Below are positions 3,839 through 62,138 of a DNA stretch of 64,000 nucleotides, one piece after another. Position 1 is the first letter of the stretch. Each line of letters begins with the position of its first letter. The stretch covers positions 64,001 through 128,000 of the IMG/VR virus record IMGVR_UViG_3300036773_000146; one strand, written 5' to 3'. The notes below the pieces were generated by a model. That model saw nothing but the letters and a program-made list of their open reading frames with translations, searched no databases and had not been told where the DNA came from. The position numbers were made by a program, and so were the translations under genes. Source of the DNA: a virus.

Positions 3839-3914
3839 CGCTGCCTCCTCCAGTGCGGAATTCAACTACCCGTCATCCTCTCACACGGACGCGGCCAGCC
3901 ACGGTCACGCGAGA

Positions 3915-6731
3915 TCATCGGACGGCCGGACTGTTGCTCCAGTCGGCCGGGGCGGCCAGCGACTCGGGGTGCTCCGCAGCACGCTGGTGGCACAGGAACA
4001 GCTCCTGCATGAGTCCTTTTTGGTCCAGTGCCTTCTCGACGGCGTTCCTCGCGTCCCACCAGCCCTCGCCCTGCGGGCCGAAGGCGTCCGAGCGGTTGCT
4101 GTGCACGAACTCCCACAGCGCGCTGCCGTTCTGCGTCCGGTACGGCTCGGGCATCTTGAGGATGCCCTCGGCCATCAGGATGATCCCGTGCACCTCGTCG
4201 GCGAGTCCCTGGCCCTCGGGGAAGCTGGCCATGGACCAGTCGGGCAGGTCCGGCGGCCGGACGATCCAGGTCTCGGTCACCACGTCCCAGGCCGCGTACG
4301 GCCGGATCAGCCGGATGTCCCAGCCGAGCAGGTTGGCAAACCAGGTTTCGTCCCACACGCCCTCGATACCGGGAAAGCGCTTCTGCGGGTCGTTCAGCTC
4401 GGCGTGCATCTGCTGGGTCAGCCCGGTGGCGATCTGGTCGTCGGTGGCGCCCAGGAAGCTCGGATTACTCTCCCGGAAGCGCATGTAGTGGATCCCGATC
4501 GAGAGGTCGAAGTCGTTGTTCCCGTGCAGGGTCTTCGAGGTCCAGGTGGAGGCCTCTGATCCGAAGAACACGACCTTCGCCCAGGTCTCGTGACCGACGT
4601 AGCCGTGCCGCGTGCAGAACGCGTCGAAGGAGGCCATGATGTCGGTGCGCACCGGCTCCTTGAGCCGCGCGTCTTCCCAGATGCGGGTGTCCAGGCCGTA
4701 GGTCCGGCCGAACAGCCGCTCCCTGGGCGCGGTGTAGCGGGCCTCGTGCGGGATGGGGCTCCGCGTGAGCCGGGAGAAGGTTCCCGCCGCGTCCGGGCCG
4801 AGGTGCTGGTGGTAGAGCTGGTGCGCGGCCTGCTGGAACTCCGGCCCGTGGCCGCCCGCTCCCTCACCGGTGCCTGTGAGGATGTGGGCCATCTCGTGCA
4901 ACAGGGTCAGGTCGTTCGTGTGCTCGCCGGACAGCCCGATGTGGTTGAGCCCGTCCGTGGTGGCCTGGCCGGAGTCCGGCTTCCGCAGGTCCCAGTGTTT
5001 CGGGTGCACCTGGATGCCGCCGGGATGTCCATGCTCAGCCAGCACACCGTTGACGAACTCGTGCACAGGCCGGTGCGCCTCGGCGCGCGCGGGGTTGTCC
5101 CAATGCATGGCGGGCACGTGCCAATCCCGGCCCGCGTGCCCGGCGCGTTCCATGGCCTCCTCGGCCACCGACACGCGATCCTCGTCGGAGAGCACGGCGT
5201 TGCGCCGGATGCCCTGCTCATAGGTCTCGTCGTGGTTGCCCGCGCTGAGCACGTGCAGCTCGTCGCCGACGGTGCGGTGCACCACGCGGGTCTTGAAGTT
5301 GAGGTTGGTGGCCTGCCAGCCCTTCAGCGGCCCGTTGAGCGCGTGCGTGGACGCGTGGCTGTTCCCGCGCCGCAGGTCGTCCACGCGGTCGTGGTAGGCC
5401 AGCTGGACGGGCTTGGACAGACGCCGGAGGTCGGAGGCGACCTTCGGGTGTTCGGCTAGCGCCTTGAGCGGCGCGCCGATGGAGTCCCGGCCGGAACCCG
5501 GGGCCACGTCCGATGGTCGTCCCGCGTCCTCATCGTCAGCTCGGCGCGCCACGTCGGGTGCATCGTGACGTGGCTTGCCTTTGCCTGCCGTACGGCCATG
5601 GTTCTCCTCTTTGTGGCGCGGGTCCAGGTGCTCCCAGTGGTCCACCGTGACCGGGGTGTCGTGGAAGGCGATCGCCGACTTGTGGCTCTCCGGCCCCTCG
5701 TGGGAGTTGCCGTAGACGATCCCGTCGTGGCCCCGGTCCTTCAGGTGGGCCAGGAAGCCGTCGGAAATCGCGTGGCGCTTCGGGTGGTGCCCGAGCCACG
5801 TCTCTTTCTGGTGCAGAGAGGCGTCCTCGGTGCCGAACTCGTCGATCTCGTCCACGTTCGGGTCCGGGTGACGGCCGTGATGCAGGCCGCGATCCCGGGC
5901 CCAGCCGATCGCGTGGTCGGTCAGCTCGTGCTCGTTCTCGTAGTCGGCCGGGTTGGCCATGTGCAGCCGCGCGTGCGCGACCCGGCTGTCCGGCGAGGCG
6001 CCCTTGCGGATGGCGATCTGCTTGGCCACGTCGCGCAGGGCCGTGTAGTGGGTGCCGAGGTCGGTGGACCAGTTCTCCGCGTGAGCACCCTCGTAATCCC
6101 AGCGCGGCGACTTCGGCGCACCCTCGTACGGCGTCGCGGTGCCGTGGTACCAGTGCTTGCCCTCCGGGCCGCCAAGGCCGTGCCCGAGATCCGCGTAGGG
6201 GTTGGGGTGCGACGGCGGCACCTCGGCCGCCGCGCGGCTAAAACCCAGACGGCGGTTGGTGACGTCCAGGGATTCGACGCCATTCCGGTGGGCCATCCGA
6301 TCCGCGAGGATCCGGTGGTGCCCCCCCGCGATCCAGTGCTGGCCCTCGTGTTCCCAGGTGTGAGGCTCGCCCGGTCGGGGCCCGATTCCGCCCCCGCCGG
6401 TGTACGGATGGCGGATGTAGTGCTCCAGGCCACTTTTGTACAGCGTGTCCTGCGAGGTGTGCAACGGGACGTCCGGCCGATGGTGCACAGGGACGCCTTC
6501 GTGCTGGGGGACCGCGTGGTCGTCGTCGACCTCTCCGGCCTCCCAGGGGTCCTCGTCGTGCAGATGAATGTTGTGCTCGCGCATCAACTGCGCGGCGTCG
6601 CGGCCCTGGATCAGCTCGTCGAGGCCGTCCAGGCGGTACAGGGCATGCCGCTGCGCGTCGTCGAGCCCATCGGACGCCGTGACGTACCGGTGCAGCGCGG
6701 CCCGCCCGCGCTTGATCCTCATCGCCGCCAC
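3915..6731 (-). CDS. polyvalent protein: ParB/Srx-like + ADP-ribosyltransferase-like + RelE/ParE-like + SprT-like zinc peptidase + pol-beta nucleotidyltransferase (start may be ATG 6722)
   Basis: WIAGGHHRI; WYHGT..LGTHYT..GHDGIVYGNSHE; ASDLRRL..HALNGPLKGW..RVVH..GNHDETY; LLHEMAH..GHGPEF; FFGSEAS..NDFDL. Confidence 0.8.
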   Translation of the reverse strand: MAAMRIKRGRAALHRYVTASDGLDDAQRHALYRLDGLDELIQGRDAAQLMREHNIHLHDEDPWEAGEVDDDHAVPQHEGVPVHHRPDVPLHTSQDTLYKSGLEHYIRHPYTGGGGIGPRPGEPHTWEHEGQHWIAGGHHRILADRMAHRNGVESLDVTNRRLGFSRAAAEVPPSHPNPYADLGHGLGGPEGKHWYHGTATPYEGAPKSPRWDYEGAHAENWSTDLGTHYTALRDVAKQIAIRKGASPDSRVAHARLHMANPADYENEHELTDHAIGWARDRGLHHGRHPDPNVDEIDEFGTEDASLHQKETWLGHHPKRHAISDGFLAHLKDRGHDGIVYGNSHEGPESHKSAIAFHDTPVTVDHWEHLDPRHKEENHGRTAGKGKPRHDAPDVARRADDEDAGRPSDVAPGSGRDSIGAPLKALAEHPKVASDLRRLSKPVQLAYHDRVDDLRRGNSHASTHALNGPLKGWQATNLNFKTRVVHRTVGDELHVLSAGNHDETYEQGIRRNAVLSDEDRVSVAEEAMERAGHAGRDWHVPAMHWDNPARAEAHRPVHEFVNGVLAEHGHPGGIQVHPKHWDLRKPDSGQATTDGLNHIGLSGEHTNDLTLLHEMAHILTGTGEGAGGHGPEFQQAAHQLYHQHLGPDAAGTFSRLTRSPIPHEARYTAPRERLFGRTYGLDTRIWEDARLKEPVRTDIMASFDAFCTRHGYVGHETWAKVVFFGSEASTWTSKTLHGNNDFDLSIGIHYMRFRESNPSFLGATDDQIATGLTQQMHAELNDPQKRFPGIEGVWDETWFANLLGWDIRLIRPYAAWDVVTETWIVRPPDLPDWSMASFPEGQGLADEVHGIILMAEGILKMPEPYRTQNGSALWEFVHSNRSDAFGPQGEGWWDARNAVEKALDQKGLMQELFLCHQRAAEHPESLAAPADWSNSPAVR

Positions 6732-7147
6732 GTCCGGTGCTGCCAGTCGTCGCCGTCCCGGTCGTACAGCTCCGCCACATCCGGCGGCGGCTCCATCTCG
6801 TGGCTGACGACGAACCCGACGGGACTGCGCGCATCACCGGACCGTGGGTAGCGCTGGCGACCTTGTGCGTCCAGCTCCGGATCGGACTCCACATGATGGT
6901 CGCTGCCGATCGGGTGCACGGCGTAGACCCGGGGCCGCCCGGGACTCACGGGATCACGATCGGAATGCTGCCCATGTGCCTCGCTGGCGTACTCCCAGGC
7001 GTCCTGGAGGTTCGTGGTGGCGTAGGCGTAATTCGGGTCGGACAGGTGATGGTCGTGCAAGGTGCCCGCGCCGTGCTGCGTCGCCGGGAGGATGTGCGTC
7101 ACGTGCGGAACCGACGTGCCGTGGTAGTAGAAGTCCAGCTCCGGCAT
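6719..7147 (-). CDS. Arr-family (rifampin ADP-ribosyltransferase-like) NAD+-dependent ART
   Basis: FYYHGT, YAYATTNLQDAWEYA, PRVYAVHPIG..ESDP, RSPVGFVV.E motifs; RBS GAGGAG. Confidence 0.78.
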   Translation of the reverse strand: MPELDFYYHGTSVPHVTHILPATQHGAGTLHDHHLSDPNYAYATTNLQDAWEYASEAHGQHSDRDPVSPGRPRVYAVHPIGSDHHVESDPELDAQGRQRYPRSGDARSPVGFVVSHEMEPPPDVAELYDRDGDDWQHRTWRR

Positions 7148-7157
7148 ACCCGCTCCT

Positions 7158-7970
7158 CTACAGTCCGTGCCGCTGGCGCAGCGTGTCCAGCACCCACTTG
7201 CCGTCGCGGAATTGCCCGACCGGCCGACCGGCCAGCGGGGTCTCCTGCTTCGGCGTCGGCTGCTTGGCTGCCAGCTTCTCGCCCTTGGCGGCCCAGTGGG
7301 TCTTCTGTTCGTCAGTGGCCGGGTAAAGGTGCGCGAACGAGTGGTATCCCTCAGGCGGGTTCTCGCGTTCGTGCTCGGGCAGGTGCGAGTACTTCTGCTG
7401 CCAGCCGCCGTGATCCTTCATCGCATCCGGATCGAGCTTCGGGTGCAGGTACTTTTCCGAGAAGTCGTGCAGGTCGAAGTAGGCCTTTTGCCGCTGATCG
7501 ACGGCGAACTTGCGCACGTCGCCCTCGTCCTTGAAGTGCCTGCTGGCGTCGAGGTAGACCTTGTTCTCCGCGCGGTCGAGCCAGCCGCCCTGGTAGCTGT
7601 CCGGCTTGGCCAGGTGCTCGGCGGCGGCCTGCCGGTGCGCGGCGATGTGCTCGGGCTGGATGTCCTTCAGATCATGGACGGTGGCCATCCCCGAGCCCTC
7701 GGGCGCGTGGTAGGAGGCCATGAAGCCGGACGACGGAGCACCACCGCGCGCCGGGTGACTGGAGAAGCCGCCGTTGGCCACCAGGTCGTGCAGACGGCCG
7801 TGGTCGTACTCGTTACTGCCCGAGGGCGCGGTGGCCGTCCGATGACCGGCTGAGGCCCCCGCAATGGCATTCAGTGCCTCCTGCGGGTCATCCGGCAGGA
7901 ACAGGTGGACGAAGCGGCCGCCGGACTTGGCGGCCGTGTGCAGTCCCCACAGCGAGGGCTCGAAGGTCAT
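7158..7970 (-). CDS. hypothetical protein with possible SAM-lyase-like domain
   Basis: GGFS..GFMAS..GGWLD...KVYLDAS.....QKAYFDL pattern; ATG 7970 with GGGAG RBS. Confidence 0.55.
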   Translation of the reverse strand: MTFEPSLWGLHTAAKSGGRFVHLFLPDDPQEALNAIAGASAGHRTATAPSGSNEYDHGRLHDLVANGGFSSHPARGGAPSSGFMASYHAPEGSGMATVHDLKDIQPEHIAAHRQAAAEHLAKPDSYQGGWLDRAENKVYLDASRHFKDEGDVRKFAVDQRQKAYFDLHDFSEKYLHPKLDPDAMKDHGGWQQKYSHLPEHERENPPEGYHSFAHLYPATDEQKTHWAAKGEKLAAKQPTPKQETPLAGRPVGQFRDGKWVLDTLRQRHGL

Positions 7971-8005
7971 GGGGGCTCCCGAGGCAGAAGAGGCGGTCTT
8001 CGCCT

Positions 8006-8036
8006 GTTGGTGCGCCGAGGTCAGTCCTCGTGCAGG
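8006..8036 (-). promoter_or_regulatory. putative phage late promoter (variant)
   Basis: CCTGCA-N18-CACCAAC, same spacing as the motifs upstream of sheath, baseplate and lysis genes. Confidence 0.45.
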
Positions 8037-8647
8037 TGATGCAGGTGGTGGCCGACGGCCTTGATGGCCACGTAACCGCCGACGATGGCGCCGGTGGCGA
8101 TCAGCGCGTTGCGCCGCTCGATCCGCTCCTGGTCGGAGAAGAACTCGTCGAACCGGGCACCGAGCTGCTTGGTGTAGTCGACCTCGGCGGCCTTGCGGCG
8201 CTTGCGGCCGATCCACAGGGCGACGAACGGCAGGGCGAACCAGGTGTAGACGACCACCGGGCCGACGGCGCCGATCAGGCCGCACGAGAGCACGAGGTAG
8301 ATCCCCACCCAGCGCAGAGCGTAGGTCCAGCGCTTGGCGTCGGCGGCCGCGCGGCGCTCGAAGCGGGCGTTGATCCGGCGTGCGTTCTTCAGGCTCGGCA
8401 TGCCGTACTGACGGCCGTCGCGGCGATCGCGGTACCAGTACACGCCGTGGCTCTCGGCCTCGAAAACCAGGTGCTGGCGGGCGTCGGCCGCGCGGTGCGG
8501 GTAGGTCTCGTCCCACACCTGCCACTCCGGTGCTTCCTGCTCCGGCTCCTCGACGGTGAACTCGGCGTCCTCGATCGGGTGCTCGGCGCGGTGCATCGCC
8601 ATGACCTCGTCCCAGCTGAGCGGGCGGAAGTCGTTCGTGTCGGTCAT
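8021..8647 (-). CDS. membrane protein
   Basis: three hydrophobic stretches; RBS GAAGGG. Confidence 0.7.
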   Translation of the reverse strand: MTDTNDFRPLSWDEVMAMHRAEHPIEDAEFTVEEPEQEAPEWQVWDETYPHRAADARQHLVFEAESHGVYWYRDRRDGRQYGMPSLKNARRINARFERRAAADAKRWTYALRWVGIYLVLSCGLIGAVGPVVVYTWFALPFVALWIGRKRRKAAEVDYTKQLGARFDEFFSDQERIERRNALIATGAIVGGYVAIKAVGHHLHHLHED

Positions 8648-9107: not shown

Positions 9108-9145
9108 GAGGGACCTCCTGTGCGGTCTTCTTGGTGACACCACTG

Positions 9146-9174
9146 ATACTACCCGTCCGGGTAGTGACACGCAA
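9146..9174 (-). promoter_or_regulatory. sigma70-type promoter with palindromic operator
   Basis: TTGCGT-17-TAGTAT; ACTACCCGTCCGGGTAGT at 9148-9165. Confidence 0.75.
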
Positions 9175-9178
9175 GGGC

Positions 9179-11164
9179 CTATCTGCGGCCACGCCGATGG
9201 GCGTTGCGCGCCGGGTTCAGGCCGCCGCCGCGCACCATGTTCCGCACGGCCGGAGAGAGCTGATTGATCAGCGCCTGGTCCGGCGCCTGCTGCCGGGCGT
9301 ACGGGTTGAAGCCGCCCTGCTGGCCGAAGACCGGCTTCAGCTCGGAGAGCATGCCCTTGGACCAGGCCTGGACCTGGTCGGCCAGCAGGCGCCAGGTGAC
9401 CTCCATCATCGACTTGGCCACGTCGTCATGGACCACCGGGCCGGTGTCCTGGTGCACAACCCGGTTCGTCGTGGCCGTGGTCTTGAGCTGGAGGAACTTC
9501 AACTCCAGCTCGGCCGTCTCGTACTCCGGGGCCTCGACCCAGCCCTGGTTGATCGCGACCTTGAAGCACTCGGCCACCTGCCAGTTGTGCTGGGAGGTGG
9601 CCGTTTCTTCGTGGACGTCCATCCGCTTGGGCGCGCGGTGCTCGCGGACCCGGCGGACCAGGGTGGCGATCGGCATGGCGCTGTTGTGCTGGTCGAAGGT
9701 GAACTCGTCGACCTTGAACGCCCAGATCATGTCCCAGAGCCGATCAGTGACCTCCAGGTAGTCGATCGTGTTGTCCGGGAACTCCGACGGCATCCAGTGG
9801 TGGATCACGTCGAACCGGACCTTCATCAGGCCGGAGTCGTCGCCGAGGGGGACGGTGTGCGCGATGGCGAGGCCGAAATTGTCGTTGACCTTCGAGGGGT
9901 CGGCGTGGCCCGCGTATCGCATGGTCAGGTTCTCCGCCTCGGAGCGCATGGCCAGGTCCGGGTGGAAGATCGCCTCGACCTTGCGGGGATCCAGATAGGC
10001 GTCGACCACGGATTGCCACTGCGACCGGCGCTCGACGGCGAACGTGTCGGGATTCGAGCGCTCCAGCTTCTCCATGCGGTCGTCGAATTCCTGCACGGCG
10101 CCCTTGAGCGGCAGGAAACCCGGCTGCGCCTGGTCGACGTACTCATCGAGGTCCCCGCAGAAGTCCTCGGGGAACATCGGCAGCAGGTGCGCCTGGGCCC
10201 AGTCGTAGTAGATCTCCCAGCTGGTCAGCTGCAACATCATCATGTACGGGTAGACCGGCTCGTCGTCCTCGTCGGTCTCCAGGCTCATCTGCCAGTTCGC
10301 GTAGAACTGGCCGACCTGCTGCCAGGGCGAGCTGGGGTCGATGATGAAGCCGTCCAGCTTGAACTGGTCGAGCGACGGCGTGGCACTGGAGTACACCTCT
10401 TCGGCCGAGCGGTTGGCGCCGACGTTGACCACGTGCGCCATCTCGTCGAAGGCCAGCACGCAGGAGGCCGGGCCACGCGCGGACATCAGCGTGGCCTCCT
10501 TCGGCTGGATCGTGAAGGTCGCCAGGTCGCTCACGGTCTGGATGCCGCGCTTGGCGATCTTCTTCATCCGGACGAAGTCGTGCGGCGCGAAGACGGTGAG
10601 GTTCTCCCCCAGGGCCCGCGAGATGTACGGGGTGAAGCAGGGCGCGCCCCGGACGACGGCGACGACGTCCTTCCACAGGTTCTCCCGGGCCTGCTGCTTC
10701 TTGCCCGCGTAGACGAACAGCGCCAGCTGCTTGTCCCGGTCGATGCCGTAGTGGCCCTGCGGGTCGCCCTTGGCCATGAACTTCCAGAGCACGTAGCTCA
10801 TCGCCAGGGCACTGACGTAGCCCTTTCCGGCGCGGCGCCCGAGCACCAGCAGGACTTCGCGGAAGTAGTTGTAGCCCTGCAAGGCGAGGCTGGCCATGCG
10901 TGTCCGGATGCCAGGAGTGATGCCGTTGTTGCCGCTCTTGCGGAAGCTCTCCTCCCACTCGTCGAGCACCATGTGGTCGTACTCGGTGAGCAGGTCGTTA
11001 CGGAGGAAGATGACCTTGAGCAGAGTCGCCTGGCGCGGATACAGCTGCGGCCGGTTGCACCACTGCGGGCTGACCACGAATGTGATCGGGTCCGGGACGT
11101 CCAGCCCGGTAAAAAGCTGAAAGTCCAGCGGCTTGAGCTGCGGCAGCGCCAGGCGAGTCGGCAT
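9179..11164 (-). CDS. terL: terminase large subunit
   Basis: LYPRQ adenine-binding motif, Walker A GRRAGKG, Walker B LAFDEMAH, nuclease HADPS..D, FDQHNS, HDD. Confidence 0.92.
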   Translation of the reverse strand: MPTRLALPQLKPLDFQLFTGLDVPDPITFVVSPQWCNRPQLYPRQATLLKVIFLRNDLLTEYDHMVLDEWEESFRKSGNNGITPGIRTRMASLALQGYNYFREVLLVLGRRAGKGYVSALAMSYVLWKFMAKGDPQGHYGIDRDKQLALFVYAGKKQQARENLWKDVVAVVRGAPCFTPYISRALGENLTVFAPHDFVRMKKIAKRGIQTVSDLATFTIQPKEATLMSARGPASCVLAFDEMAHVVNVGANRSAEEVYSSATPSLDQFKLDGFIIDPSSPWQQVGQFYANWQMSLETDEDDEPVYPYMMMLQLTSWEIYYDWAQAHLLPMFPEDFCGDLDEYVDQAQPGFLPLKGAVQEFDDRMEKLERSNPDTFAVERRSQWQSVVDAYLDPRKVEAIFHPDLAMRSEAENLTMRYAGHADPSKVNDNFGLAIAHTVPLGDDSGLMKVRFDVIHHWMPSEFPDNTIDYLEVTDRLWDMIWAFKVDEFTFDQHNSAMPIATLVRRVREHRAPKRMDVHEETATSQHNWQVAECFKVAINQGWVEAPEYETAELELKFLQLKTTATTNRVVHQDTGPVVHDDVAKSMMEVTWRLLADQVQAWSKGMLSELKPVFGQQGGFNPYARQQAPDQALINQLSPAVRNMVRGGGLNPARNAHRRGRR

Positions 11165-13186: not shown

Positions 13187-13887
13187 CGCTGCCTCCCGAT
13201 CGTGCCCGCGCCCGCACCCGCGCGCCTGAGCATCCCGTGTTCGAAGTTCACGCACGCCTGGTCGAACTCGTCCATCGCCTGATGGCAGACGGTATAGCCC
13301 GGCGGAATCATCCCCCGGTGCGCCACGTACGTGACGAGCAGCGGGTGGACGTAAAAAAAGCCCGACGCCGTGGCGCGGGACCTGAGTCGTATGCGGGGCT
13401 CTTGACCGGGTGCGGTGAGCGTGTAGCGCAGGCAGCCGTCCATCACCCGGGTCGTGCTGGTCTTGATTCTGCCTGCCAACGCGGCCATGCTGCCGATCGC
13501 CTGGTGGTAGTGCGCGTGCTGCCAGTCGTCGGTATGACTGCGGAACCGGGCAATGCCGCCGGTCTCGATGAATTCGACGAGCTTCCGCAATCCGAGCGTG
13601 GCGTACATGCCGACGGGATTAGTCGGCGAAACACCCATCAGCTGCGCGGCGTCCTGCTCACGATGATCTTGTACGAGGAAGAGCTTGATGGCTGTGTACT
13701 GAGAGTGAGTGAGCAGTCGCGGAGCCTGTTCGAAGAGATACTCCAGGTCCCAGAGCGACCACTCGCGACCGGACGGGGAGATGATCTCATCGATCCCCTC
13801 GGTCTCGTAGAGGCTGCGAAACTCCTGCAAATACCTGAACAAAACACGCAATTCCGACACTGCTGGCAAGGATTGACTGGACGTCAC
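13183..13887 (-). CDS. sigma region-4-like HTH regulator with C-terminal degenerate HNH/His-Cys finger
   Basis: LTHSQYTAIKLFLVQDHREQDAAQLMGVS..V; C-terminal GCL..Y...RGMIPPGYTVCH...CVNFEH. Confidence 0.6.
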   Translation of the reverse strand: MTSSQSLPAVSELRVLFRYLQEFRSLYETEGIDEIISPSGREWSLWDLEYLFEQAPRLLTHSQYTAIKLFLVQDHREQDAAQLMGVSPTNPVGMYATLGLRKLVEFIETGGIARFRSHTDDWQHAHYHQAIGSMAALAGRIKTSTTRVMDGCLRYTLTAPGQEPRIRLRSRATASGFFYVHPLLVTYVAHRGMIPPGYTVCHQAMDEFDQACVNFEHGMLRRAGAGAGTIGRQR

Positions 13888-13932
13888 GGTGGCGGAGCCC
13901 TTCGACCCTGGTGGCCCTGCCTGATATGGCAA

Positions 13933-13959
13933 GGCGGGCGGTCTGCTGGACCGCCCGCC
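13933..13959. terminator. intergenic stem-loop
   Basis: GGCGGGCGGTC-tgctg-GACCGCCCGCC. Confidence 0.55.
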
Positions 13960-14034
13960 ACCCATAGTGATCGAGAGTCACCCACTTGGCAAGAACACCG
14001 ACCCTGTGGGTGACAAACACGCATCTTATTCTCG

Positions 14035-14733
14035 TTAATTAGCCACGTGAATGTCCTTGATTCGCTGATTAAGTCTCTCCATTGAGCGGACGATTGCGTC
14101 GGCTTTTCGGGAGTAATAGGTCTTGAAAATGGCCAGGAACTGGTCCTCGGCAGCCACCATCTTGGCCCGCGCCGTCCGGCCCTCGATGGTGTCCTTGCTG
14201 CCCGAGGGCAGGTCATCGTAGCCGGAGGAGAACTGCTGCTCCCAGATGACCTTGGCGTACATGCTCTCGGCCCAGGCCTCGGCACCACGCTGCTCCCAGA
14301 CGATCATCCGGGTGGTGATCTGGTAGAGGAACCGTTCGCGTTCCTTGGCGTTGAGCCTGCCCCAGTCCTCCACGAAGTCACCGGTACCCTGCTTGCGCTT
14401 CCACTCGACCGAGCCATCGTGGTTGATGATCGGCTCGCCGTTGAGCATGGCAGGCGTGCGCACCAGAAGAAACAGCTCCTCCTGGAGCGCGAAGGCGTCG
14501 GCGAAGGCCTTCTTGAGCTGGTCGTCGATGTTGCGGTGCATGATCCGCACGAACTGGGCCTGCTCGCTGTTCCAGTCGGTCTTCATCCGGGAGAACCCGG
14601 TCGTCTGGAACCGGCGCTCGCGCTCGTCGGGCAGCTCGACGTTCGGCTGCTCGGTCAACTCCTTGGCCTGCTCGGCGGTGACTTCTTCGTTGGTGGTCTT
14701 GCCGCTGGCGCGGGTCTTGTCGTCATCAGCCAT
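14035..14733 (-). CDS. conserved-looking helical hypothetical protein (recombination operon)
   Basis: 232 aa, strong RBS, GC3-rich codons. Confidence 0.7.
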   Translation of the reverse strand: MADDDKTRASGKTTNEEVTAEQAKELTEQPNVELPDERERRFQTTGFSRMKTDWNSEQAQFVRIMHRNIDDQLKKAFADAFALQEELFLLVRTPAMLNGEPIINHDGSVEWKRKQGTGDFVEDWGRLNAKERERFLYQITTRMIVWEQRGAEAWAESMYAKVIWEQQFSSGYDDLPSGSKDTIEGRTARAKMVAAEDQFLAIFKTYYSRKADAIVRSMERLNQRIKDIHVAN

Positions 14734-15445
14734 GATCCTTTTCCTCCTGAAGCCTGCACGCCTTGCATGCGGTGACGATGGTGGTGGGGTTGGTCTTGCG
14801 GGCGATGGACCGGCCCCTGCGCAGACCGGTCTTGTGACCGCACTCCAGCCGGAGGACCGTCCGGTTGATCACTTGGCCGGTCTGGGTCTGGCCCATGGGA
14901 ACCTCTTCGAAGGCCACGCCGCACCGCTTGATCGTGTCGTCACGCTTCTTGCCGTCCGGCCGCGTGGGCACCTCTTGCTCGGTCAGAATCTGGCGCACCC
15001 GCGATTCGTTGACGAAGAAGAACTCGGCGATCCGGCTGGTCGACCAGCCCGCGAGGTACAGCCGGACGACCTCCTCAGAACTCAGGTATGAAGGCGGTGG
15101 CCCGGACCGCTCCCGCAGCGGAATATCGTGCTGCTCCAGTGAGGCCTTGACTCTCTGCAAACCCACACCCAGAGCGCTCGCCACGTCGATCATGCTGCGG
15201 CCCTGGCGCACGTACATCCGCTCCAGCAGCTCCTTGTTCAGCGGAGGCAGCGCGCGGCTCCCCGGCAGTGTCAGCCGGTGCCCGGCATTGTTCTTGAGCG
15301 GGATCTCCAGCCTGATCAGCGCGTTGCGCACGGTCGTCGGCATCACGCCGTGCGCCACGGCGATCTGGCCCATCGAGAGGCCCTGCTCGTGGTAAAGCCG
15401 CGTCAGCTCCTCGCGGGTCGGATCGAACTTGCGTCGGGCGCTCAC
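14726..15445 (-). CDS. triple-HTH repeat protein with C-terminal Zn ribbon
   Basis: three L.RLY..G.S...IA..GV....VR..L....IP.R repeats; LECGH..CKAC. Confidence 0.72.
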   Translation of the reverse strand: MSARRKFDPTREELTRLYHEQGLSMGQIAVAHGVMPTTVRNALIRLEIPLKNNAGHRLTLPGSRALPPLNKELLERMYVRQGRSMIDVASALGVGLQRVKASLEQHDIPLRERSGPPPSYLSSEEVVRLYLAGWSTSRIAEFFFVNESRVRQILTEQEVPTRPDGKKRDDTIKRCGVAFEEVPMGQTQTGQVINRTVLRLECGHKTGLRRGRSIARKTNPTTIVTACKACRLQEEKDHG

Positions 15446-38636: not shown

Positions 38637-38666
38637 TGGACAGCGAACTACCCGTTCTGGTAGTCT
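38637..38666 (+). promoter_or_regulatory. sigma70-type promoter with palindromic operator
   Basis: TGGACA-18-TAGTCT; ACTACCCGTTCTGGTAGT at 38647-38664. Confidence 0.65.
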
Positions 38667-60629: not shown

Positions 60630-62138
60630 TCAGGGCGTGGTGGTGGTGTCGGTGACCGAGCCGTTCGACGTGTCGACGGTGAAGCTCACCAGGATGTAGT
60701 TCAGCGGCCAGGACGGCTTGTAGGCGAAGCGCACCTCGATCACCGTCGGATCGCCGCTCGGCGGCGACTGCTCACGCACCTGCAACGAGTTGTAGTCCAC
60801 GATCAGCCCGACGGTGGCCGACTTGGCGTTCTCCAGGGCACCGGCCACGATGGACTTGACGTTCAGGGCCGTGCCCGCGTCGATCGGGATGCCGATCAGG
60901 CCCGAGGACTCCATGGTCTGCTGGAGCAGGTCGTAGAGCGCATCCTGGGCGCGAACCAGGGAGATCTCCCGCAGCAGCACGCCACCCGCGTAGTTGGTCG
61001 TCAGGCCGTGCCGGACGCGCAGCTGGCTCTGGCGGTTCGGCTCGACCACCATCACACCGGACTTGGCCATGGTGTCCTTGTTCGTCGGGGTCATCGCCCG
61101 CGACACCGCAGCCGGGAAACCGGAGAAGCCCGAGACCACCTTGTTCGTCAGCGGCATCTGCGGCTGCTGGGCAACCAGGATCCCGGCGCATCCGGCAGCC
61201 AGGTAGTAGCCGTCCACGGTGATGGTGGTGTTCGTGACGCCGTTGAAGAAGTTCAGCTGGTTCGGGTAGGCCAGCACGATGCGCGAAGAGCTGATCCCGC
61301 TTGCCAGCGCGGCCACACCGGACGCCGATCCCGCATAGGCCTTGTCCAGGCCGACCATGGCCATCCGCAGGACGCCCTTGTTGGCGTCCTGCATGAGGGC
61401 CGCGTTCAGCGTGGCGAACATGCCTGCGAGCGCGGCCGGATCGGTTACCCCGGAGAACAGGGGAACCACCACGTTCACATCCGAGTTGGCGGCCGAGAGC
61501 GTCTGGTAGGCGTCGGCGAACTGCTGGCTGATGGTGCCGATCGCCGGGTCGACCGCCAGGGTGTAGATCTGGTTCGCACCGTTGGTGATGGCCGTCTGGG
61601 CCGCGAAGGTCAGGGGGCTGACGAGCGCGCCGGTCGAGGGATCCAGCGACGGACCGTAGGTGTCGGCGATCGAGGCGAAATCTTCGAAGAAGTTCAGCGC
61701 GAAGTACGAGGCGTCGGTGTACTGATAGCTGACCGTCACCTGCGGGTAGGCGTCCTCGATCTTGCCGCCCGAGGAGCGGTTGATCGTGGTGACCGAGTTC
61801 TCCGTGCCGCCGCTGGTGTTCGCACTCAGCGAGTAGTCGTGCGGCGTGCTGGTGGCGTCCTTGGTGAAGGTGTAGGGCACCGACTGGCCCGAGGCATTCG
61901 GGTCGGTGATGTAGCCCTTGACCACGACCGACGCGAGGTTGATGCCCTTCTGCGTCAGGGTCACCGCCGTGACGCCGCCTGCGAAGGAGACCGTCTCGGA
62001 GTAGGTGTGGTAGCCGATGCCACTGCCGACCAGGCACACGACCGTAGGGGCGACCCCGGACACGGCGACGGTCGGACTGGAGCCTGCCTCGACGTACACC
62101 CCCGGGTGGAGGTAACTACCGAAATTGGGGCCGGTCAT
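60630..62138 (-). CDS. tail sheath protein
   Basis: YLHPGVYVE N-terminus; YLAA..AG, VRHGLTT, REISLVRAQD, YKP.WPLNYI.V.F. Confidence 0.93.
   Translation of the reverse strand: MTGPNFGSYLHPGVYVEAGSSPTVAVSGVAPTVVCLVGSGIGYHTYSETVSFAGGVTAVTLTQKGINLASVVVKGYITDPNASGQSVPYTFTKDATSTPHDYSLSANTSGGTENSVTTINRSSGGKIEDAYPQVTVSYQYTDASYFALNFFEDFASIADTYGPSLDPSTGALVSPLTFAAQTAITNGANQIYTLAVDPAIGTISQQFADAYQTLSAANSDVNVVVPLFSGVTDPAALAGMFATLNAALMQDANKGVLRMAMVGLDKAYAGSASGVAALASGISSSRIVLAYPNQLNFFNGVTNTTITVDGYYLAAGCAGILVAQQPQMPLTNKVVSGFSGFPAAVSRAMTPTNKDTMAKSGVMVVEPNRQSQLRVRHGLTTNYAGGVLLREISLVRAQDALYDLLQQTMESSGLIGIPIDAGTALNVKSIVAGALENAKSATVGLIVDYNSLQVREQSPPSGDPTVIEVRFAYKPSWPLNYILVSFTVDTSNGSVTDTTTTP

Follow-up and report, generated by a model that had tools for sequence, protein, structure and literature searches.

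What lies between positions 3915 and 8036 of the 64,000-nucleotide stretch of viral DNA considered here, and how might its products serve the virus? The stretch, which we call the window, comprises bases 64001-128000 of IMG/VR record IMGVR_UViG_3300036773_000146, a complete virus record of 149,735 bp with direct terminal repeats; coordinates are those of the window unless marked as genome positions. We compare this 149.7-kb genome (G000), which is 67% G+C and carries nearly all of its genes on the minus strand, with an independent 155-kb relative (G001; 125 of 256 genes in common, ~55% protein identity) and with the loci of four related phages (L003-L006). The three co-oriented genes picked out here by an initial sequence-only reading do form a tight minus-strand operon (7970-7158, 7147-6719 and 6722-3915), with a 10-nt gap between the first and second genes and an ATGA stop/start overlap between the second and third. 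To judge from what the relatives carry at this position, the locus is very probably a hypervariable effector slot whose large product is a polyvalent protein. The genes of the cassette and the borders of the slot are as follows.

7158..7970, minus strand: gene of a 270-amino-acid (aa) histidine-rich protein, first of the three-gene operon
6719..7147, minus strand: gene of a 142-aa Arr-like ADP-ribosyltransferase, second of the operon
3915..6722, minus strand: gene of the polyvalent protein, 935 aa from an ATG start and 938 aa from a GTG start
8021..8647, minus strand: gene of a 208-aa membrane-type protein, the fixed upstream border of the slot, 41% identical to a 202-aa gene of L003
3839..3914, minus strand: intergenic downstream border of the slot, holding the early-type CGCACNGGAG leader of the next conserved gene

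Both flanks of the slot are kept in the relatives: upstream, a 656-aa protein, small genes and the 202-aa membrane protein; downstream, small genes followed by DUF6011, Lsr2 and WhiB genes. Here, three small genes upstream of the cassette are driven by an early-type promoter unit at 9108..9178. What stands between the flanks differs in each of five phages: three relatives have a single protein each, of 854, 565 and 719 aa, a fourth has an Arr-like gene together with a 476-aa RelE-nucleotidyltransferase protein, and the phage described here has the 270-, 142- and 935-aa proteins. A fixed slot with differing content in every relative examined is the signature of an arms race. Nucleotide searches with the cassette returned zero matches among GenBank phages and PLSDB plasmids, as did tblastn searches with the 270-aa and 142-aa proteins against GenBank phages.

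It is well supported that the 935-aa product belongs to the polyvalent proteins and is built of five modules in collinear order. Among 5.8 billion proteins searched it has 48 relatives, many of them on 150-157-kb contigs, and BLAST mapping against these resolves five modules, each independently present or absent (M1, aa 7-170; M2, aa 165-381; M3, aa 372-507; M4, aa 507-660; M5, aa 660-935, by mapped extent). M5 is the constant part, found in almost all relatives, and the N-terminal modules are shuffled upon it. Elsewhere in the 49-protein family these include GNAT in 22 proteins, SprT in five, ART-PolyVal in three, and Gln_amidase (a papain-fold glutamine deamidase) and ParB_N in one each. Thus at least two unrelated domains share one phage polypeptide (a RelE fold, a SprT-like HExxH peptidase, a nucleotidyltransferase and two further modules), the relatives display combinatorial architectures, and solo modules, the Arr-like gene and the 270-aa gene, adjoin. 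The multi-enzyme protein of 938 aa proposed from the sequence therefore stands, on the strength of the five-module mapping and the shuffling seen in 48 relatives. An AlphaFold model built on the relatives' alignment is confident only for aa 260-330, 415-500 and 680-935. The modules are placed as follows.

6213..6722, minus strand: M1 (aa 1-170), with an invariant G-H-H-R motif; the module is present in 8 homologues
5580..6212, minus strand: M2 (aa 171-381), with YHGT at aa 192-195 and a Y-G-N-S-x-E motif ending at invariant E342
5214..5474, minus strand: M3 (aa 417-503), a RelE/YafQ/YoeB-fold ribonuclease-type toxin domain
4743..5204, minus strand: M4 (aa 507-660), with HEMAH at aa 609-613 and G-H-G-P-E-F at aa 624-629
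3915..4742, minus strand: M5 (aa 661-935 and the stop codon), a Pol-beta-type nucleotidyltransferase with G721-S722 and D737-x-D739

M1 resembles ParB/Srx-like domains in its G-H-H-R motif only; it has zero Pfam or PDB profile matches, and model confidence is low there. M2 is probably an ART-PolyVal-type ADP-ribosyltransferase. We read it so because three motifs (Y-H-G-T, T-x-x-G-x-H and Y-x-N-x-x-E) are invariant across the family and because homologue P0035, 45% identical over M2, matches PF18760 in the homologous region below threshold (E value 1.7e-5; 26.1 bits against a cut-off of 31.2). M2 of the 935-aa protein itself has zero PF18760 match, and its ADP-ribosyltransferase core is modelled at low confidence. 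Searches of the phage's own genome with PF18760 and PF02195 gave zero matches, a weak negative, since a first look had yielded no candidates. For M3 the whole RelE/YoeB/YafQ fold superposes, with a root-mean-square deviation of 1.6-2.0 over 80-85 residues, and basic, His and Tyr residues, candidate catalytic positions, are conserved in the alignment consensus. M4 is a predicted SprT-like zinc metallopeptidase (Pfam SprT-like, E 3.1e-5, 24.2 bits against a cut-off of 25.6; TIGR04338 HExxH, E 1.7e-4), modelled with low confidence. For M5 the model shows a nucleotidyltransferase fold carrying the invariant G-S and D-x-D on its first two strands, as in Pol-beta-type enzymes; its nearest ESM Atlas neighbours are viral nucleotidyltransferase clusters (template-modelling score 0.63-0.73), and its PDB matches are weak. 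Sequence and profile searches of the PDB returned zero matches for the 935-aa protein and for M1-rich or M2-rich sub-alignments, and a second structural comparison of the model with the PDB gave a list filled by RelE matches, from which the other modules gained nothing. Some further matches are to M5 alone: in two more IMG/VR sequences, L007 and L008 (151.6 and 123.8 kb), tblastn covers M5 only (aa 660-934 at 64% and aa 666-908 at 33%), and Streptomyces phages BRock and GiJojo match the M5 part only, in genes annotated 'hypothetical protein'.

How does this protein compare with those already described? Polyvalent proteins of phages and conjugative elements have been predicted to be delivered along with the DNA and to release their modules by proteolysis (Iyer, Burroughs, Anand, de Souza and Aravind 2017, J Bacteriol, PMC5512222). 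Like them, the 935-aa protein and its family combine unrelated domains in one polypeptide, have a putative zincin-like hub and ADP-ribosyltransferase, GNAT and ParB types, are adjoined by solo versions and are shuffled combinatorially. Unlike them, the family has a constant C-terminal Pol-beta nucleotidyltransferase anchor and often includes a RelE/YafQ-fold module; its slot has a fixed place away from the structural module, with conserved genes on either side; the junction tripeptide discussed below is common to head-assembly proteins; and the variable modules are strongly His-rich. Similarly, M3 shares with RelE, YoeB and YafQ toxins the full fold and a conserved C-terminal H-x-x-x-Y-type segment, and differs from them in being part of a 935-aa protein, near which there is neither an antitoxin gene nor an antitoxin domain.

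The 142-aa protein can fairly be labelled Arr-like on its alignments, membership of Arr being not established. All six members of its alignment (the query and five relatives) match Pfam Arr-ms (PF12120), with a best E value of 2.1e-6; the query itself reaches E 0.11 and 13.1 bits against a cut-off of 25. The top PDB profile matches of the family are the Arr structures 9iaf and 2hw2 (E 0.09). H9, Y42 and E87/D89, invariant in the six-sequence alignment, line up with the Arr motifs H-G-T, Y-x-T and D/E-D-P; we take these to be the catalytic positions from what is known of Arr. The profile matches and invariant motif positions bear out the Arr-like ADP-ribosyltransferase proposed for this gene. 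As in Arr, the protein has ~140 aa and the same order and spacing of H-G-T, Y-x-T and acidic-D-P motifs; unlike Arr, it is phage-encoded and His-rich and its similarity is weak, and its substrate need not be rifamycin. A specific kinship between the Arr-like family and M2 was considered and is not claimed: hhalign aligned only Y-H-G-T, with a probability of 2%.

Actinomycete hosts make anti-phage antibiotics, and the cassette might counter such a chemical defence by inactivating small molecules, not macromolecules. Arr-like ADP-ribosyltransferases, GNAT acetyltransferases and nucleotidyltransferases are classic antibiotic-modifying families; here the 142-aa protein is Arr-like, 22 of the 49 family members have GNAT, and the nucleotidyltransferase is weakly like aminoglycoside adenylyltransferase AAD(9) (rank 46, E 0.045). 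However, the likeness to resistance enzymes is at superfamily level only, and the RelE-fold RNase, zincin, ParB-like and glutamine-deamidase modules point to macromolecular targets, so that we consider this explanation quite improbable.

In the effector slot as we read it, the first gene encodes a protein of another kind. The SAM-lyase-like label initially given to the 270-aa product finds no support: its model has zero structural neighbours in the PDB and no detectable SAM-lyase likeness, and its family has zero sequence or profile matches there. Its core is the following domain.

7455..7829, minus strand: core domain of the 270-aa protein (aa 48-172), a fold without a PDB match; the AlphaFold2 model of the protein has a predicted local distance difference test score (pLDDT) of 84

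An exhaustive HMMER search found 372 representative relatives of this core (aa 55-170 in that search), which occurs standalone or within proteins of 1000-2400 aa with GNAT, SprT-like and LigT domains, and BFVD holds 22 phage matches to the 270-aa protein, some of them fusions annotated as zeta-toxin domain or XkdF. The domain is thus widespread (372 representative clusters) and confidently modelled, without a solved structural relative or a Pfam family. The core corresponds to the C-terminal domain of mycobacteriophage Colt gp97 (hhalign 99.1%, E 1.7e-18), and the N-terminal part of Colt gp97 is homologous to this phage's 921-aa protein and to gp205 of Rhodococcus phage E3, whose annotation reads 'structural protein'. 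By these alignments, the 270-aa domain is fused in Bixzunavirus mycobacteriophages to a homologue of this E3 protein with its structural annotation. Direct kinship between the 270-aa protein and the portal-adjacent 921-aa protein was looked for and none was found; the link runs through the fusion proteins of other phages. The 921-aa protein (genome 2516-5281, minus strand, two genes before the portal gene) contains an intein at about aa 500-764 (LAGLIDADG_3, E 8e-9, and a weak intein-splicing match), and its N-terminal part matches phrog_3170 and, at 51% identity, E3 gp205.

When are these genes expressed? A listing of all intergenic regions yields two classes of signal, which we call L and E, and the cassette lies beside a member of each.

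8000..8036, minus strand: class L promoter-like motif of the cassette, a degenerate CCTGCAC-N-CACCAAC, score 16.0, rank 12 in the genome
9108..9178, minus strand: early-type (class E) promoter unit with sigma70-like -35/-10 elements, a 16-bp palindrome and a CGCACNGGAG leader, at the same position in L003-L006

The motif first reported upstream of the cassette, CCTGCA-N18-CACCAAC, was said to recur before other genes. In its exact form it is a single copy in the window and in the 149.7-kb genome, and a near-exact scan (spacing 16-20, one mismatch per half) gave zero meaningful further copies. What does recur is a looser signal, which precedes virion genes and is conserved before the cassette. 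We replaced the literal motif with a position weight matrix trained on nine class L sites, CCTGTTC(C)-N15-17-(G)CCCAAC, which lie 11-47 nt ahead of start codons or within the end of the preceding gene. These precede the first gene past the terminal repeat, several head genes, the sheath gene, an 835-aa tail gene, the baseplate block and a 447-aa gene opening the operon that ends in the portal gene. The training sites score 22-31, the cassette site 16.0 and the best background match 15.6. The -35-like half of the cassette motif sits in the last codons of the 208-aa membrane-protein gene, and a match occupies this same position in each of the four related phages, scoring 17.8 in L003, 14.1 in L004, 22.2 in L005 and 20.8 in L006, where it is the sole match of at least 14 in each of the 12-16-kb loci. 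In G001 the cassette site ranks second genome-wide, and the other top matches precede orthologues of the class L genes of G000. From the positional conservation in four relatives and the second rank in G001 we conclude that class L is a genuine signal, that it goes with virion genes, and that the cassette has a copy of it. In L007 and L008, promoter scans found zero class L motifs and one stray match to the class E palindrome pattern, in L008.

Class E consists of about 25-28 palindrome promoters of CTACCCGATCGGGTAG type (genome 11.7-73.2 kb, and one further copy on the plus strand) and 40 CGCACNGGAG leaders, each leader sitting before the start codon of a gene. Its features are conserved in related phages and confined to the small-gene and replication regions, with zero in the structural modules, and class E looks like one operator-controlled regulon. 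Palindrome copies in the window lie at 9150-9163, 2862-2875 and 38649-38662. The cassette forms an island without class E signals inside, flanked by the unit at 9108-9178, 1.1 kb upstream, and by the leader at 3848. Judging by gene content, late co-expression of the cassette with the virion genes is likely, and we hold with some confidence that class L would co-regulate the two. Expression that is late only, as first proposed, is not supported: an early-type promoter stands 1.1 kb upstream without a terminator-like site after it, so that early read-through into the cassette is possible.

A second link to the virion comes from the tripeptide [KR]-T-A. We defined a head/assembly block a priori as the genes from the 447-aa gene to the portal gene together with those from the first gene to the capsid gene. 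This block, with 15.6% of residues, holds 23 of the 48 sites of the proteome (p 1.5e-7), and the tail block is depleted. Control [KR]xA tripeptides showed no head-protein enrichment, as measured in seven head-module proteins chosen after per-protein counts and not in the a-priori block. The sites include residue 17 of the capsid protein, four in the scaffold-like protein and five in a 755-aa protein (0.5 expected), and the orthologous head positions of G001 keep basic-[Q/S]-Ala. In the polyvalent family we count 57 [KR]TA sites where 18.5 are expected, the top ratio among [KR]xA tripeptides, and the tripeptide stands before at least 12 unrelated downstream module starts. Two sites lie in the cassette.

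5586..5594, minus strand: R-T-A (aa 377-379 of the 935-aa protein), a candidate processing site in the conserved disordered M2-M3 linker
7833..7841, minus strand: R-T-A (aa 44-46 of the 270-aa protein), in a disordered loop

The M2-M3 linker has pLDDT below 50 over aa 333-415, and among the 29 homologues carrying its GKGKP stretch, 14 have [KR]TA at that point. The initial proposal had been of short N-terminal leaders ending in a basic-x-Ala motif. The strings are there, but they are not conserved, and the residues are missing in most homologues; the R-T-A at residue 44 of the 270-aa protein fits [KR]-T-A, whereas the other leader strings do not. A conserved N-terminal capsid-targeting peptide was not found in the 935-aa and 270-aa proteins, whose N-terminal 13-17 residues are variable or missing in homologues.

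Could both signals be by-products of recombination? The class L motif would then be a conserved joint left by recombination, or just the way in which the membrane-protein gene happens to end, and [KR]TA a micro-homology for module swapping at the DNA level. The slot is clearly a recombination hot spot, the -35-like half lies within coding sequence, and linkers such as that before GKGKPR are conserved over long stretches. Yet the motif recurs 11-47 nt before the start codons of unrelated virion genes in two genomes of ~55% protein identity, [KR]TA is followed by at least 12 unrelated downstream contexts, and unshuffled head proteins are enriched in it as well. On balance we judge this account improbable.

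Histidine content is a third feature common to the cassette and part of the head block, and here the description of all three products as His-rich was accurate: they have 9.9%, 8.4% and 7.8% His against 2.7% genome-wide, and rank 1-3 of the 141 proteins of at least 100 aa. In the 935-aa protein the bias sits in the variable modules (6.6-12%), not in the nucleotidyltransferase domain (3.3%). Homologues within the lineage keep it, but distantly related versions of the 270-aa core lack it. Proteins of the tail and the capsid shell contain little His; the remaining large His-rich proteins are the 767-aa, 755-aa (NUDIX), 921-aa and 804-aa (protease) proteins of the head block. The 767-aa and 755-aa proteins are encoded by the first two genes past the terminal repeat (genome 145049-149619, minus strand; NUDIX in the 755-aa protein, E 1.2e-12) and are candidate head-internal multi-domain cargo. 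The 804-aa protein (genome 140196-142610, minus strand) is a head maturation protease fused to DUF7178 and zinc-ribbon segments; the homologous region of G001 consists, by our own open reading frame calls, of three separate open reading frames.

We propose the following reading. The cassette would be transcribed together with the virion genes, and its products would enter the prohead. There the head maturation protease would cleave the polyvalent protein at its [KR]-T-A junctions, the likely sites of this protease in the scaffold, the capsid N-terminus and other head proteins having the same tripeptide; the SprT-like peptidase may add to the processing. The freed modules (RNase, ADP-ribosyltransferases, peptidase and nucleotidyltransferase) would be ejected with the DNA and disable host functions or defences. 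Taken as a whole, from effector slot and virion co-transcription to prohead entry, head-protease cutting and ejection, this reading seems to us evenly poised. Its component of packaging plus head-protease processing we advance tentatively, at somewhat under an even chance: it is supported indirectly by the class L signal, by the tripeptide at module joints, by the His bias common to head-block proteins, and by the fusion of the 270-aa domain to a virion-protein homologue elsewhere.

Known precedents resemble this scheme in part. T4 Alt and internal proteins and the ejection proteins of phiKZ and SPN3US are cut by the prohead protease (PMC5694885, PMC7411985, PMC10052503). The cassette products would resemble such cargo in being made late, entering the prohead, being cut at a short motif of the head proteins and entering the next host with the DNA. 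In contrast to that cargo, the motif here would be basic-T-Ala, the cassette lies outside the head gene block, and no conserved N-terminal capsid-targeting peptide was found. Prohead proteases of the T4, phiKZ and SPN3US type cleave at L/I-x-E or A/S/G-x-E. The paper on the Myrna capsid has no cleavage-site data in it. The MuF-anchored polymorphic toxins of temperate phages (SPP1 gp7 fusions) are likewise variable toxin-type domains on a constant phage part, differing by phage. Unlike them, the constant part here is a C-terminal nucleotidyltransferase, no MuF was detected, the cassette is not beside the portal gene, and the phage is probably lytic.

A number of observations weigh against this scheme. 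No capsid-anchoring domain (MuF, portal or other known) was detected in the 935-aa protein or its family; Phage_Mu_F has zero matches in any of the 49 members at E 0.01. The Arr-like protein has zero [KR]TA, and the single exact [KR]TA in each of the 935-aa and 270-aa proteins is non-significant (p 0.38 and 0.13). G001 has a looser motif in its head block ([KR]QA, p 0.03) and R-I-A in its polyvalent linker, and co-variation of the junction tripeptide with the head-protein sites is not clear. The conserved linkers could be recombination joints instead of protease sites. The cassette copy of class L in G000 is degenerate in its -35-like half; taken singly it would be marginal, since it scores barely above the best background match. 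The cassette is placed among early-type units, outside the structural module, and the scan found no terminator-like site between the class E promoter and the cassette. Lastly, a phage sigma factor was not found, with zero region-2 matches genome-wide; weak helix-turn-helix matches resembling sigma70 region 4 occur in the replication block (window 13618-15397, minus strand; best E 0.005, below the cut-off).

The main rival, then, has the same toolkit act inside the infected cell, unpackaged. It would be made there by early read-through from 9108-9178, possibly again later, and during takeover its modules would stop host translation and alter host proteins or nucleic acids. The polyvalent protein would either stay intact or process itself, its SprT-like peptidase cleaving at the junction motifs. 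We regard this as a real possibility, though a minority one. It agrees with the absence of a detected capsid-anchoring domain, with an upstream early-type promoter and no terminator-like site between, and with a cassette that heads an early-type region and in relatives has Lsr2 and WhiB genes beside it; the protein contains a predicted zincin peptidase, and Iyer et al. (PMC5512222) count self-processing among the options. But the class L motif, elsewhere tied to virion genes, is positionally kept before the cassette, which is without the early leader that the flanking genes have; the junction tripeptide is the very one in which scaffold, capsid and other head-block proteins are enriched; and many family members have junction motifs but are without a peptidase module.

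What would the packaging reading mean? In its boldest form the head-protease site [KR]-T-A would serve as punctuation between swappable modules of a capsid-delivered, plug-and-play polyprotein, His-richness would mark cargo, and the 270-aa protein would represent a new effector fold, fused to a virion protein in other actinophages; whatever enzyme the phage newly acquired would be expressed alongside the virion genes, taken into the prohead, released there by cutting and injected. This extended form we think rather doubtful. If packaging is true, a phage could gain or swap injected effectors and would not have to evolve a new packaging signal for each. If it is false, what remains is a compact collection of enzymes that are candidates for host takeover or anti-defence in actinobacteria. 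The concept of polyvalent proteins, like the hypothesis that they are packaged, dates from 2017; new here are the links to regulation and processing, the constant nucleotidyltransferase anchor and the domain of no known fold. Few polyvalent proteins have yet been tied to a regulatory class or a processing mechanism, and this locus offers a candidate late-promoter class together with a candidate head-protease tripeptide that also marks module joints.

Finally, we turn to the setting of the locus. PHROG matches identify the sheath (window 60630-62138), two tail proteins (one with lysin domains, the other of 1769 aa), a baseplate wedge protein, and a DnaE-type polymerase with other replication genes; in the head genes, they identify the major head protein, the head-protease fusion and the portal (genome 61-2166). 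The closest cultured phages are Bixzunavirus mycobacteriophages and Rhodococcus and Gordonia myoviruses. Sheath identity to them is only ~33%, and the lineage is therefore taken as new and metagenome-only: on its gene sequences, the phage is a member of a new, uncultured ~150-kb lineage of actinobacteriophage myoviruses. An IMG/VR locus search with a 661-aa neighbour of the slot as sole query gave zero relatives. This 661-aa protein (window 9179-11164, minus strand), at the end of the replication block, is the sole protein among the 29 larger ones scanned with a terminase-large-subunit PHROG match, a weak one to phrog_2 (E 3.6e-11); it is without a Pfam match, and its relatives show a weak match to MJ0330_N.

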